This document shows, piece after piece, positions 8,801 through 63,962 of a stretch of DNA of 64,000 nt. This stretch comes from Nitrospinota bacterium (GTDB lineage Bacteria; Nitrospinota_A; UBA7883; JACRLM01). The stretch is taken from contig JACRLM010000031.1 of NCBI GenBank assembly GCA_016235255.1, forward strand, positions 43,763-107,762. Reading direction: 5' to 3'. Position numbers and translations under genes: made by a program. Each line of letters begins with the position of its first letter. The stretch's first letter is position 1. The notes under the pieces are model-generated. The model was not told the DNA's origin. It saw only the letters and a list, made by a program, of their open reading frames with translations, and searched no databases.

Positions 8801-8834
8801 CGCGGCTATATATAGATCGCCATGCTCGCGCCAT

Positions 8835-8927
8835 GTCATCCCGGAAGCCGTAATCGGCTATCCGGGATCACGGTATACAAGGGGCAACCCGGTGGGGGTC
8901 GCCTGAGGGCAAGCCAGCGGCTTGCCC
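8835..8927. repeat. REP-like palindromic intergenic element (two adjacent hairpins)
   Basis: Hairpin 1: GTCATCCCGGAAGCC-gtaatc-GGCTATCCGGGAT (8835-8868). Hairpin 2: GGGCAAGCC-agc-GGCTTGCCC (8907-8927). The hairpin-1 arm reappears in inverted orientation at 35752-35783. Confidence 0.45.
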
Positions 8928-8978
8928 CTACAAGGCGCTGATGCCGGATCAAGTCCGGTATGACAATTATTGAGCGCT

Positions 8979-24932: not shown

Positions 24933-25010
24933 GCGCCCGTAGCTCAGCCCGGATAGAGCGCCAGATTGCGGTTCTGTAGGTCGCAGGTTCGAATCCTGCC
25001 GGGCGCACCA
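24933..25010 (+). tRNA. tRNA-Arg, anticodon read as GCG (includes the encoded CCA)
   Basis: Manual cloverleaf: acceptor GCGCCCG/CGGGCGC, D-stem GCTC/GAGC with D-loop AGCCCGGATA, anticodon stem CCAGA/TCTGT, loop TTGCGGT, T-arm GCAGG-TTCGAAT-CCTGC, discriminator A, then CCA. Overall similarity to E. coli tRNA-Arg(ACG) is high. Confidence 0.85.
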
Positions 25011-34334: not shown

Positions 34335-34353
34335 AGACTTGGAGGGACACACT

Positions 34354-34389
34354 CGCTGACATATACTTGTTCATGAGTATATGTCAGCG
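34354..34389. promoter_or_regulatory. Perfect 14-bp inverted repeat with 8-nt spacer (CGCTGACATATACT-tgttcatg-AGTATATGTCAGCG) between lnt and pfp
   Basis: Read directly. Arms are at 34354-34367 and 34376-34389, 25 nt upstream of the pfp ATG. Confidence 0.4.
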
Positions 34390-34414
34390 AATTAATCCAT
34401 TTTAGGGGATAGGC

Positions 34415-35722
34415 ATGAACCCTTTGACTGTAGGCATACTGGTGGGCGGTGGGCCCGCTCCGGGGATAAACAGCGTCATCCGCGCGGCCACGATAAAGCT
34501 TCGCAACCATGGATCGAAGGTGATAGGCATTTTCGATGGCTTCGCCAACCTGATGGCAAAGGATATCACCCAGGTGAAGGAGCTTTTCATCGAGGATGTG
34601 TCCACTATTCATTTTGAGGGGGGCTCCATCCTTCGCACTTCGCGGGCAAATCCGACGAAGAGGCCGGAGGACTTGAAGGCCGTCGTCGAATCGCTCGACA
34701 ATCTCGGGATAAATTGCCTTTTGTCCATCGGGGGGGACGACACGTGTTTCTCCGCCCACCAGGTGGCAAAGCTTGCCCAGGGGCGCATCCGGGTGATCCA
34801 TGTCCCCAAGACGATAGACAACGACTTGAACCTCCCCCACGGCATCCGCACCTTCGGCTTCGCCACAGCGCGGCATTTCGGGGTGCAGATAGTCAAAAGC
34901 ATAATGAACGACGCCAAGACCACAAGAAGGTGGTACCTGGTGGTTGCCATGGGAAGAAAGGCCGGGCATCTTGCCATCGGCATCGGCAAACCGGCCGGCG
35001 CCACCATAACCGTGATACCGGAGGAGTTCGCCGGACCTAAAATTGACTTCATGTGGATTGTGGACACCCTGCTGGGAGCCATCATAAAACGCAAGGCGGC
35101 AGGCAGGCCCTATGGCGTGGCGATATTGGCGGAGGGACTGGCCGAAAAACTTTCCACGGAAGAACTCGAACGCATGGGGCATCTGGAATACGACGAGCAC
35201 GGCCATCCGCGCCTTTCGGAAATCGAGCTTGGCAAGGTGGTGAAGAACACCCTGCGCGGCGAACTTAAAAAACTTGGGATAAAGACCACCGTCGTGGACA
35301 AGGACATAGGCTATGAGCTGCGCTGCGTGGAGCCTGTCCCTTTCGACATGGAGTACACGAAAGAACTGGGCTTCGCCGCGGCGAAACACGCGCTATTGGG
35401 CGGCAGCGGGGACATGATAACGATACAGGACGGCAAGTCGGTGCCGATGCCTTTTTACGCGATCATGGACCCGGATACGGGGCGCACGAAGGTGCGCATG
35501 GTGGACATACACACCGAGACGTACGAAATGGCGCTGGAATACATGATCCGGCTGAAAAAGGACGACTTTAAGAACGAAGAATACGTAAAGCACCTGGCCG
35601 CCCAGACAAACCTTACACCGGAGCAGTTCCGCGAGAGGTTTGAGCGCGTCGCGGTGGCATTTGAAGGGCCATCCACGTACATCCCGTACCAGCAGCCCGG
35701 TTTCGCGGCGGGGGAGATATAG
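34415..35722 (+). CDS. pfp: 6-phosphofructokinase, probably pyrophosphate-dependent (PPi-PFK)
   Basis: GILVGGGPAPGINSVIRA, GGDDT (Asp, not Gly, at the ATP/PPi-discriminating position) and PKTIDNDL (Lys) point to the PPi-dependent type. Confidence 0.8.
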   Translation: MNPLTVGILVGGGPAPGINSVIRAATIKLRNHGSKVIGIFDGFANLMAKDITQVKELFIEDVSTIHFEGGSILRTSRANPTKRPEDLKAVVESLDNLGINCLLSIGGDDTCFSAHQVAKLAQGRIRVIHVPKTIDNDLNLPHGIRTFGFATARHFGVQIVKSIMNDAKTTRRWYLVVAMGRKAGHLAIGIGKPAGATITVIPEEFAGPKIDFMWIVDTLLGAIIKRKAAGRPYGVAILAEGLAEKLSTEELERMGHLEYDEHGHPRLSEIELGKVVKNTLRGELKKLGIKTTVVDKDIGYELRCVEPVPFDMEYTKELGFAAAKHALLGGSGDMITIQDGKSVPMPFYAIMDPDTGRTKVRMVDIHTETYEMALEYMIRLKKDDFKNEEYVKHLAAQTNLTPEQFRERFERVAVAFEGPSTYIPYQQPGFAAGEI

Positions 35723-35751
35723 AGAGGCTCCGAGCCGGGGCCGGGGCCCTT

Positions 35752-35783
35752 ATCCCGGATAGCCTATGAGGCTTCCGGGATGA
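35752..35783. repeat. REP-like hairpin unit (inverted copy of the unit at 8835-8868)
   Basis: ATCCCGGATAGCC-tatgag-GGCTTCCGGGATGAC. The 3' arm is the exact reverse complement of 8835-8849. Confidence 0.45.
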
Positions 35784-35840
35784 CAGCAAACGCGCTGGTG
35801 GCGCTCCCAAAGGAAAAACCCATTGTCGAAAATGATTTTC

Positions 35841-36195
35841 TGCTTCCCCGTAACCGTTTCTATTAACGCTTCCCCGTGGTCGCCTCTTAATGCTTCCCCG
35901 TGGTCGCCTCTTAATGCTTCCCCGTGGTCGCTGACCACGGATTCCTAAAGCGGGGAACCGGGGACTTCGTGGGAGCGCGGGCATCTTGCCCGCACTAATT
36001 AGACGGGGCCTAAACGGCTCCGTCTAATTACAGCAGCGCTTTTTGCAAGTCCAAGACGCCTTCGAGGCTCCTTGGACTTGTTGCGGGCAAGATGCCCGCG
36101 CTCCCAGGGGGGAACGAATCGCTGTCCGGGGTGTTCTTCACCCCGGACTCATCATGCCGCCGTATACGATGGCGGGGTGAAGAACATCCCGGCGA
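35841..36195. repeat. Composite palindromic intergenic repeat element, copy A (tandem 26-bp direct repeats plus nested hairpins enclosed by a 23-bp inverted repeat)
   Basis: Direct repeats CGCTTCCCCGTGGTCGCCTCTTAATG x2.5 (35867-35940). Hairpins GTGGTC-g-CTGACCAC, TAATTAGACGG..CCGTCTAATTA, CAAGTCCAAG..CTTGGACTTG, CGGGGTG..CACCCCG. Outer inverted repeat GGGAGCGCGGGCATCTTGCCCGC (35961-35983) / GCGGGCAAGATGCCCGCGCTCCC (36083-36105). A ~95-nt core is near-identical to 58690-58790. Confidence 0.55.
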
Positions 36196-36316
36196 GCAGT
36201 AAAAAGTCAAAAGTAAACGGCCTGACCCCTTTCTTACTTTCAAAAAAGGTCAAGCTCCCCCGCCCCACCGCCGATAAGTTCTCCATGAAGACTTATCGGG
36301 CGAGGAGTGCGGTCGA

Positions 36317-36592
36317 ATGCCTTCGTTGAGCGTGCCTAAGGCCACGGGCAATAAAATGTCGTCGTCCATCAGGCCGACGGGGAAGAACATATCCATGCCC
36401 CCAGCGGCCAAAAATCCGGGGCAGCTTCTGGACTGGTCCGGCAAACTGTCCAATGTGCCGATGAAAGGAAGCGGAGCTCCATATAAGAACGTCAACAACC
36501 AGACGTCGGACGCGCAGACCTCGCGCCTGCGGCAGAGCGGCCAGGAAGCGGTACAAGGCGGAAAGGGTGAGAGAATCGGCATTAAAGTGTAG
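36317..36592 (+). CDS. Possible small polar/disordered protein (91 aa), low confidence
   Basis: High GC3 in frame (~70%) but no hydrophobic core or motif. It lies between the repeat element and the DUF72 gene. Confidence 0.2.
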   Translation: MPSLSVPKATGNKMSSSIRPTGKNISMPPAAKNPGQLLDWSGKLSNVPMKGSGAPYKNVNNQTSDAQTSRLRQSGQEAVQGGKGERIGIKV

Positions 36593-58458: not shown

Positions 58459-58662
58459 GGGGAGTGGGATATCGTTCTATTTTTTCAATAATATCATATC
58501 TCAACTGACGGGGGTCTTCTTGATCCGGCTATCTTCGCGACGCCGGTATAGTGCCTGCAATTGCCACCGTCAAAGGTGGCGCTGCAACGGAACCCAGGGA
58601 GCGCGGGGTGGCACGGCCACGGCGGAATTCCCGCATCACATAAATGGAACCTCAAAGACTCC

Positions 58663-58940
58663 ATAACGTTTCCCCGTGGCCGCCTCCATTAACGCTTCCC
58701 CGTGGTCGCTGACCACGGATTCCTAAAGCGAGGAACCGGGGACTTCGTGGAAGCGCGGGCATCTTGCCCGCACTAATTAGACGGAGCATCAAAGGCTCCA
58801 TAATGCTTCCCTGTGGTTACCTCTACTAACGCTTACCGCTGTCCGGGGTGTTGTAGCCCGCAAGGGCGGTCACCCCGGACTCTTTGTGCTCCGTTCAGGA
58901 AGGCGGGGTGACGCGCTTCGCGCTCAAACACCCCGCCGAG
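58663..58940. repeat. Composite palindromic intergenic repeat element, copy B (diverged)
   Basis: Shares the ~95-nt core ...TTAACGCTTCCCCGTGGTCGCTGACCACGGATTCCTAAAGCG(A)GGAACCGGGGACTTCGTGG(A)AGCGCGGGCATCTTGCCCGCACTAATTAGACGG... and the CGGGGTG..CACCCCG hairpin with copy A. It lacks the 3' partner of the long inverted repeat and has an 18-nt insertion in one hairpin loop. Confidence 0.55.
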
Positions 58941-58993
58941 CGGCAGAAGGCTGGCCGATGGCGATTAAAGGAGGGGATATAACTACTATGCGC

Positions 58994-63701: not shown

Positions 63702-63962
63702 TCAGACCAATCCCGTGAGCATGTGCGTCCCGTCGCAGAAAGGCGGCTTTGTCGTCTTCTTGCATCCGCATAGGGCGGCGTGCCTGTCCTTTTCGATTTC
63801 AAAAACCATCGGGACGTTTTTCATCCCTTCATACTCCGTCCCCTTGTGCGACCCGTCGCAGAAAGGCTGCTTTCTGGAAAGCCCGCACCCGCACCATGCG
63901 TAACTTCCAGCCTTAAGCTCCACGATGTAAGGAGCGTTCTTCGGCGATTTGGGATCAGGCAT
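63702..63962 (-). CDS. CDGSH-type iron-sulfur domain protein (mitoNEET-like), two CDGSH motifs
   Basis: CGCGLSRKQPFCDGSH and CGCKKTTKPPFCDGTH. Confidence 0.75.
   Translation of the reverse strand: MPDPKSPKNAPYIVELKAGSYAWCGCGLSRKQPFCDGSHKGTEYEGMKNVPMVFEIEKDRHAALCGCKKTTKPPFCDGTHMLTGLV

Follow-up and report, generated by a model that had tools for sequence, protein, structure and literature searches.

Repetitive extragenic palindromic (REP) sequences have as their hallmark a GT(A/G)G head, conserved and unpaired, at one of their ends (PMC2817692; PMC3733652), and inverted doublets of them fold into one hairpin, the REPIN (REP doublet forming a hairpin), with singlets regarded as remnants and with tandem clusters also described (PMC3116915). 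GTAG and CGTC REPs occur as heterodimers with 20-100-bp spacers and with DNA between the dimer partners, and tagged REPs are recorded in eight phyla by a text that does not contain the string 'Nitrospir' (PMC3733652). Non-GTAG, partly self-complementary inverted repeats with the common motif GGGGWSAS flank the genes of TIRYT tyrosine transposases (PMC3733652). The present analysis concerns a REP/REPIN-like family, previously undescribed, in Nitrospinota, which forms two large intergenic clusters, copy A and copy B, in a 64,000-nucleotide stretch of a Nitrospinota bacterium (assembly GCA_016235255.1, contig JACRLM010000031.1, positions 43,763 to 107,762; hereafter the window). Copy A (35725-36248, 524 nt) is not a single element; it is a mosaic in which hairpin modules are nested. 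The modules are probably of the REP/REPIN class, assembled into mosaics resembling bacterial interspersed mosaic elements (BIMEs) and moved in trans by a tyrosine (HUH) transposase. This is an ordinary kind of feature, and the general understanding of such elements is unchanged by it.

Loci and contigs used for comparison carry L numbers: L001 is a Nitrospinota metagenome-assembled genome (MAG), L003-L013 are metagenome contigs, and L016-L018 are PFK relatives, PFK being the gene directly upstream of copy A. The family shares with the system formed by REPs or REPINs and their REP-associated tyrosine transposase (RAYT) short, GC-rich, tagged extragenic hairpins, a replicative-looking unit in which two inverted copies, 20-100 nt apart, fold together into one long hairpin, singlets that look like decayed doublets (L025 compared with L003), higher-order and tandem clusters, and the lack of a target duplication. 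It differs from that system in its host, which belongs to the Nitrospinota and not to the proteobacteria, in the tag of its H and T units, GCTTC/GAAGC instead of GT(A/G)G, and in doublets that are obligate heterodimers of two stem variants; moreover, no RAYT gene was located in the window or in 207 kb of compared loci. A third module, REPa (GTGGGAGCGCGGGCATCTTGCCCGC; GTGGGAGCGCGGGC...GCCCGC), is built much like the Pseudomonas REPs GTGGGAGCGGGC...GCCCGC, and the RAYT-associated REP of P. putida reads TGTGGGAGCGGGCgTGCCCGCGAA (PMC2817692 Table 1).

The BIMEs of E. coli and other enterobacteria likewise combine two REP variants in alternating orientation with other short motifs in intergenic mosaics, amplify sub-units in tandem and differ strongly between close relatives. 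Their sequences are unrelated to those described here and belong to another phylum, their tandem sub-unit is a Y-Z pair whereas a half-hairpin is amplified in the window, and BIMEs bind gyrase, IHF or Pol I, which the present family is not known to do. The TIR/TIRtron-TIRYT systems (PMC3733652) are similar in their moderate abundance, inverted-repeat units that are self-complementary in part or in full, dimers and clusters, and in having no GTAG tag; T contains GGGGTCAG, which fits GGGGWSAS, a match of just eight degenerate positions. Unlike in those systems, no TIRYT gene was found beside any copy of the present family, and the described cases come from Acidobacteria, Stenotrophomonas and others (PMC3733652).

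Composition of copies A and B

The H unit is a 25-26-nt tagged hairpin, GCTTCCCCGTGGTC-GCT-GACCACGG, that is, GCTTC-CCCGTGGTC-GC(C)T-GACCACGG. Its inverted variant, T, reads CCGGGGTC-AGGC-GACCCCGG-CGAAGC, or GCTTC-GCCGGGGTC-GCCT-GACCCCGG on the other strand. H and the reverse complement of T are about 80% identical over 26 nt, and the differences between them are paired changes that preserve the stem (T-A to G-C). H usually pairs with a T 20-100 nt further on, giving a doublet of 67-75 nt, and the 74-nt H/T doublet folds as single-stranded DNA (ssDNA) into a single long hairpin (z = -5.5). Together with REPa and a fourth module, M4, these units are hairpins of 25-30 nt with stems of 7-8 bp.

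The features that the original prediction had described at 35741-36195 are present there, far above chance, and several of their dimensions were revised. Tandem Repeats Finder (TRF) places a tandem array at 35863-35931 (period 24, 2.9 copies, 97% matches, score 131), and the repeat search recovered three 24-nt copies with a fourth, degenerate unit upstream at 26-nt spacing (35842-35867). The tandem repeats themselves were therefore correctly seen, and their supposed unit of 26 bp in 2.5 copies gives way to a period of 24 in 2.9 copies plus the degenerate one, the earlier 26-letter unit overlapping itself by 2 nt. The 16-mer GCTTCCCCGTGGTCGC has seven matches with at most three mismatches in the window against 1.4 expected, a number that one of 100 shuffles reached, and six of the seven fall in copies A and B. 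On the plus strand of the window, GTGGTCGCCT is confined to the tandem units at 35868-35915, which are unstructured on their own (z = -1.8). These repeats are the left halves of another hairpin unit, H. It is wrong to see here one composite element with a terminal inverted repeat at its ends: the inverted repeat is an internal REP doublet within a larger mosaic.

That inverted repeat, previously put at 23 bp, was correctly recognised; its arms at 35970-35994 and 36082-36106 measure 25 nt and are 100% complementary (BLAST), and they can be extended to 49 nt at 80%. As also predicted, it encloses two hairpins, at 35996-36030 (15-bp stem) and 36046-36080. The spacer that holds them (35996-36080) has nothing similar in the 207 kb of compared loci, apart from part of the first hairpin in copy B, and REPa doublets were found in the window and in L013. 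Folding is strong throughout: the 523-nt block reaches -266.7 kcal/mol as RNA against -190.4 ± 6.2 for its shuffles (z = -12.3), the 137-nt REPa doublet reaches -64 kcal/mol as ssDNA (z = -15.2), and the M4 doublet at 36121-36197 gives z = -5.8 as ssDNA. The right unit of M4 ends in ...CCCGGCGAGC, resembling the tail of T, ...CCCCGGCGAAGC, and the M4 module also occurs in L003, L004, L005 and L026. On the plus strand of the window, GCCTGACC has a single exact occurrence, at 36220-36229. By analogy with L009 and L012, described below, the segment 35910-36219 may sit inside a split hairpin of the H/T type.

Copy B repeats the module order of copy A with different accessories. The shared core, 35911-36021 against 58689-58799, spans 111 nt at 94% identity (115 nt at 94.8% by BLAST), and the two cores stand in direct orientation 22,778 nt apart. 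The second occurrence of the core had thus been rightly reported, as had three G/A differences, and its length and identity are corrected from about 95 nt and 95%. Copy B folds with z = -5.5. The loop of one of its M4-type hairpins (58851-58871) carries a small GTAG-headed hairpin, GTAGCCCGCAAGGGCGG, which looks like a REP inserted in the loop. In the third, smaller cluster, at 8830-8960, a REP with the canonical GTAG head (GTAGGGGCAAGCCGCTGGCTTGCCC) is accompanied by another GC-rich hairpin and by a copy, 91% identical, of the hairpin at 35752-35785. The coordinates of all modules are collected in Table 1.

Table 1. Modules of the repeat clusters; positions are those of the window unless a locus is named.
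Feature	Position	Strand	Remarks
Copy A, whole mosaic	35725-36248	+	Missing at the PFK/small-ORF junction of a close relative
Hairpin module ATCCCGGATAGCC...GGCTTCCGGGAT	35752-35785	+	91% over 35 nt to 8868-8834, minus strand (blastn-short)
Degenerate tandem unit 0, GCTTCCCCGTAACC GTTT CTATTAAC	35842-35867	+	Direct repeat, 26-nt spacing
Two identical 24-nt tandem units: H left arm GCTTCCCCGTGGTC, loop GCCT, 6-nt junction CTTAAT	35868-35915	+	TRF
Complete H: GCTTC tag, 8-bp stem CCGTGGTC/GACCACGG, loop GCT, ATTCC	35916-35945	+	Identical in copy B and 13 other loci
Spacer TAAAGCGGGGAA, then CCGGGGAC	35946-35968	+	Aligns with the spacer and T left arm of 67-75-nt doublets; remaining T missing
REPa: GTGG head, GAGC, palindrome GCGGGCA-TCT-TGCCCGC	35969-35994	+	Resembles RAYT-associated REPs
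REPa doublet spacer, two private hairpins (35996-36030; 36046-36080)	35996-36080	+	
REPa, inverted, CTGG head	36082-36107	-	With 35969-35994 makes a 137-nt REPIN-like doublet
M4, second inverted doublet, CCGGGGTG-TTCTT-CACCCCGG hairpin	36121-36197	+	25-nt arms, 88%
GCCTGACCCC, candidate right half (loop GCCT and right arm) of a hairpin with a tandem unit as its left half	36220-36229	+	
Copy B, whole mosaic	58597-58946	+	Module order as in copy A, accessories different, extra hairpins in loops
Copy B, REPa-like unit with expanded loop	58597-58639		
Copy B, left-half unit GTTTCCCCGTGGCC-GCCT	58668-58685		
Copy B, H	58694-58723		Identical to the H of copy A
Copy B, REPa	58747-58772		
Copy B, left-half variant GCTTCCCTGTGGTT-ACCT	58805-58822		
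Copy B, M4-type pair	58838-58882, 58902-58946		Extra hairpins in loops
Third, smaller cluster	8830-8960	-	Between convergent RecG and MBL-fold genes
GGGGCTGTTGCCCRAA miniature element	L009 407-553; L012 275-384; L010 11927-11942	L012: -	

Distribution, turnover and nesting of the modules

H is not restricted to the two copies of which the original prediction knew: it is present at at least 13 other intergenic loci, at least two of them on Nitrospinota contigs. The exact H 21-mer occurs on 11 metagenome contigs (L003-L013), nine of which come from one sample. In 200 kb of compared sequence there are 28 complete units, 16 of which form eight convergent doublets, always of one H-type and one T-type unit. 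All copies of the four modules lie between large open reading frames (ORFs), which stand in convergent, divergent or tandem arrangement, and in either orientation relative to the flanking genes. The H and T patterns had zero matches in viral contigs, and blastn of 35841-36200 found no match in plasmid records. One of the contigs that carry H, L008, from another metagenome (Ga0224496), encodes at 883-2274 a protein beginning MALDISFDLPPEEALEWFRAKGL, which we take to resemble the phage Mu F-like head-morphogenesis proteins.

Across the doublets the termini are conserved and the spacers unrelated, and RNAalifold detected no compensatory change in any of 21 predicted pairs among eight family members. 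Taken together, the invariant termini, the unrelated spacers and the lack of covariation point to a recently propagated mobile element with recognised ends and not to a structural RNA. Target-site duplications, proposed earlier as a point to look for, were absent at all ten H-T doublets. A pyrimidine occupies the position 5' of the unit in all 21 cases; positions -2 to -4 are rich in T, and the 3' flank is unbiased.

The copy A block is an insertion/deletion polymorphism. In L016 and L017, whose PFK is 92% identical in amino acid sequence, TAG-AG runs directly into GTCAAGC..., where the window carries 524 nt (35725-36248); the junctions of this block show just an ambiguous 2-nt AG and no clear target duplication. 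In L018 (PFK 79%), PFK and DUF72 are 28 nt apart. A conserved GGTCAAGC begins directly after the end of the block. For copy B, an empty site was sought through the adjacent sulfide:quinone oxidoreductase-like (SQR) gene, whose best non-identical homologue is 69% identical, and no close relative was found.

Among five loci orthologous to that of the L003 radical-SAM gene, whose flanking proteins share at least 90% identity, no two module sets are alike: every strain has a mosaic of its own, a truncated copy or a deletion, which indicates fast turnover. At one site, L003 has the full doublet, L025 a singlet, L023 a truncated copy and L022 a GTAG REP instead. As a separate observation, hairpin families of the GGGGG/CCCCC type (e.g. 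CCCCCTTGTCAGGGGG) fill the intergenic region of nadC and radical-SAM (L022 2200-2450, L023 2190-2380, L025 1060-1470), and their combinations also vary among strains with a flanking protein of 90% identity or more. In practice, the clusters generate spurious ORFs, strains whose flanking proteins share 90% identity or more have entirely different intergenic regions, and masking is advisable for annotators and comparative-genomics pipelines. If the proposed interpretation is true, such a repeat population would provide a simple strain-typing marker for an environmentally important group, the marine and sediment nitrite oxidisers and their relatives.

Nesting is most evident in L009, where an outer doublet is split in the H loop by a 147-nt element with GGGGCTGTTGCCCRAA ends, itself carrying an inner H-T doublet. 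Removing these 147 nt together with one GCCT restores a 74-nt doublet that is identical to the L003 doublet at 68 of 74 positions. In L012 a GGGGCTGTTGCCCRAA element sits in the T loop, flanked by AGGC; this case is less clean, the downstream flank also differing from that of the allelic L007. The element may carry either an H-T doublet or GTAG REPs, and its duplication is the 4-nt GCCT/AGGC. REP-targeting insertion sequences of the IS1397/ISKpn1 type insert precisely in the loop of REP-type hairpins with a short duplication. The GGGGCTGTTGCCCRAA element resembles them in its position in the hairpin loops of L009 and L012, and differs from them in being 147-190 nt long, non-coding and without a transposase gene. 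These nested loop insertions are a clean natural example of repeats serving as landing pads for miniature elements.

Proposed mobilisation and the competing explanations

Under the proposed mechanism, the units would be non-autonomous mobile DNA, moved as single-stranded hairpins by a tyrosine transposase (HUH, IS200/IS605-type; RAYT or TIRYT-like) that would be encoded elsewhere in the genome. Single-strand HUH transposition agrees better than the DDE type with the missing target duplication and with a flank bias that is one-sided. As no transposase was found in the window, nor a RAYT in the 207 kb of compared loci, the HUH mobilisation step is one that we infer. The 24-nt tandem repeats would be scars and not functional iterons, their period corresponding to the sum of the junction (6), the left arm (14) and the duplicated loop GCCT (4). 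The array may have originated by repeated insertion of the element into the loop of its own terminal hairpin, H, followed by recombination between the nested direct copies; simple slippage of the 24-nt unit is an alternative origin, which the data cannot separate from self-insertion. Effects on the host, such as stabilisation of mRNA 3' ends, termination or protein binding, would be secondary. If true, a REP/REPIN-type population in Nitrospinota would extend the range of vertically inherited partnerships between repeat and transposase. A more specific version is doubtful, though worth stating: H/T may constitute a REPIN-like system in Nitrospinota, which the cited REP/RAYT papers do not name as a host, with obligate heterodimers, a GAAGC tag, the loop of its own terminal hairpin as preferred insertion target, half-hairpin arrays that record self-insertions, and a lineage-specific Y1/HUH enzyme.

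Several observations weigh against the REP/REPIN interpretation. A Pfam search of the ORFs of the window detected no transposase, tyrosine or other, and no integrase, reverse transcriptase or cas gene, and a RAYT tblastn over 207 kb of loci returned chance matches, a weak test, the query, E. coli YafM, being approximate. The H/T tag is GAAGC, not the GTAG or CGTC of the described REP superfamilies (PMC3733652); canonical GTAG REPs exist in the window (8830-8960) and in relatives. REPa has its GTGG head in two of about six instances, the others showing CTGG or CAGG. Within the window there are just two large clusters and a small one, and the exact H 24-mer is confined to one of 185,579 species representatives (L001, the Nitrospinota MAG), a count that excludes the window's own genome, which is outside the set, and on which the under-assembly of repeats in MAGs bears. 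No clean empty site for a single 74-nt doublet was found in the five orthologous loci of the L003 radical-SAM gene, and the empty-site difference at copy A could be a deletion in the relative and not an insertion in the window. Finally, H and T also make a respectable terminal inverted repeat, imperfect and 26 bp long, like that of a MITE (miniature inverted-repeat transposable element).

A classical MITE is the main rival, though an unlikely one. The elements would then be deletion derivatives of insertion sequences with a DDE transposase, with H and T as imperfect terminal inverted repeats of about 26 bp, and they would move as double-stranded DNA by cut-and-paste or copy-paste. The inverted-repeat identity of H and T, the non-coding elements of 67-310 nt and the empty site in L016/L017, which supports insertion, agree with this, and the family resembles the bacterial MITEs Correia/NEMIS, RUP, ERIC and Nezha (PMC3184786, PMC10969869), which are 70-300 nt long, non-coding and intergenic, with terminal inverted repeats of 15-30 bp and stable hairpins. 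The GGGGCTGTTGCCCRAA element, which has terminal inverted repeats, is flanked in L009 by a clean target duplication of 4 nt and in L012 by what appears to be another, so DDE-type miniature elements probably coexist here; it alone is textbook MITE-like. The H-T doublets, in contrast, show no target duplication at any of ten sites, nor does the 524-nt block, each of their ends forms a perfect hairpin and only one flank is biased, as is typical of single-strand HUH and not of DDE transposition, and no full-length insertion sequence with these ends, which would be the parent, was found in the window, the compared loci, plasmid records or viral contigs. The original prediction had left open whether a MITE, a REP cluster or a small RNA was present. 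The REP-cluster or MITE option is borne out by dispersed, intergenic modules that form hairpins as inverted doublets, and by a block that a close relative lacks. An improbable explanation is that the clusters are cis elements serving the host, in mRNA stabilisation or termination or in binding gyrase or IHF, the tandem 24-mers being a protein-binding array. The very strong folding potential and the location of copy A directly 3' of PFK on its sense strand would suit such a function, and passages of PMC3733652 attribute such secondary roles to the REPs and BIMEs of E. coli; nevertheless, the block is absent in a close relative whose PFK and small-ORF flanks align across the junction, copy B is antisense to both of its flanking genes, the family occupies both divergent promoter regions and 3' ends, the element's strand has no T-tract terminator, and the tandem units are unstructured half-hairpins.

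The small-RNA option fares worse. A structured non-coding RNA gene or a riboswitch-like leader in two paralogous copies would explain a 111-nt core conserved at 94% and a very stable predicted structure, and it is nonetheless very improbable. Rfam 15 gave no match for copy A: the best hit of a permissive scan of 35600-36400 was sR40 at E = 0.67, below the gathering score, and the sole match in the window at the gathering threshold is the tRNA at 24933. Neither a sigma-70-like promoter nor, on the element's strand, a terminator was found, copies A and B have opposite orientations relative to their neighbours, invariant termini enclose unrelated interiors with none of the 21 pairs compensated, and the block is missing in the close relative. 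We give slightly less credence still to an assembly artefact, in which MAG assembly would have created or mis-joined the tandem units or what lies inside A and B. Logan short-read contigs do stop at 35843, 58718 and 58914-58916 (the ends of L002, L027-L029 and L019-L021) without crossing the clusters, in samples SRR12113393, -94, -95 and -407, up to three per junction. A true repeat would, however, be expected to break contigs in this way, copy A has syntenic flanks in three relatives (PFK, small ORF or DUF72, TatC, PyrF), and modules, doublets and nesting recur on independent contigs of other metagenomes. The contigs ending at 58718 do so slightly before the point that copy A alone would account for, a hint of additional copies in the genome. 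The practical consequence is that these clusters break short-read assemblies of Nitrospinota MAGs, whose contigs end exactly at the cluster edges. Practically negligible, finally, is the idea that the direct repeats are attL/attR of a 22.8-kb island, or a degenerate CRISPR array. The two cores are indeed direct repeats and tandem repeats are present, but the interval contains DUF72, TatC, PyrF, flagellin, FliD, UvrB, HisG and MiaA, which leads us to reject an island; it has no integrase or mobility gene, its GC content is uniform, and the tRNA gene is not at a boundary. The earlier statement that this is not a CRISPR array is confirmed by contiguous units without spacers and by the lack of a cas gene in the window, where the lone Cas-type Pfam signal is a weak helicase-domain match inside RecG.

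Two other candidates were tried and rejected. A retron has no reverse transcriptase nearby, the downstream genes being the small ORF, DUF72 and TatC. Integron attC sites were dismissed by inspection, as the TTAAC-type junctions depart from the R''/R' consensus.

Genomic setting and additional repeats

Copy A is non-coding, as originally proposed: it lies between the stop of PFK (35722; gene 34415-35722) and a small conserved ORF at 36317-36592, on the sense strand directly 3' of PFK, and only short ORFs overlap it, with a peptide motif in common that derives from the repeats and matches none of 5.8 billion predicted proteins. A peptide read from the H unit (GIRGQRPRGS; 14-sequence profile) had seven chance matches, none related, among 5.8 billion predicted proteins. 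The order downstream is small ORF, DUF72, TatC and PyrF. The small ORF encodes 91 aa with no Pfam match and is conserved in relatives, with flagellin and FliD 3 kb downstream. It is preceded at 36272-36279 by GCCGATAA, which presumably resembles a sigma-28 -10 box. Copy B lies between the stop of SQR (58994) and the start of a methyltransferase gene (58458), both on the minus strand.

The large ORFs of the window are all chromosomal housekeeping genes, including a cytochrome oxidase operon, RecG, ArgG, flagellin, FliD, UvrB, HisG and MiaA. The nearest PFK homologues (82-83%) carry the names of Nitrospinae/Nitrospinota MAG proteins, the SQR protein beside copy B has a 100% identical counterpart in an NCBI Nitrospinae MAG, and the product of the L003 gene falls in a cluster, at 90% identity or more, with a protein of a Nitrospinae MAG.

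Palindromic repeats appear to be common between the genes of Nitrospinota. Another palindromic family, …GAGATTCTTCGCT…CAGAATGACA…TGTCATTCTGAGCG…GAAGAATCTC, occurs in L014 (11330-11480, 11790-11930), L006 (960-1110), L001 (1-60) and L022 (2290-2340), and also directly after PFK in GCA_016208975.1. Within the window, a perfect 17-bp AT-rich palindrome, ACTCGCTGACATATACT...AGTATATGTCAGCGA, lies at 34351-34392 between the stop of Lnt and the start of PFK; it does not resemble the GC-rich modules and may act as an operator or terminator. The multihaem cytochrome c ORF at 571-1671 contains a 108-nt tandem repeat at 1255-1464 (1.9 copies, 88% matches), probably a duplicated haem-binding module. Near the end of the window, a 58-nt direct repeat occupies 63713-63770 and 63836-63893, with 74% identity between the two copies, which are 123 nt apart.

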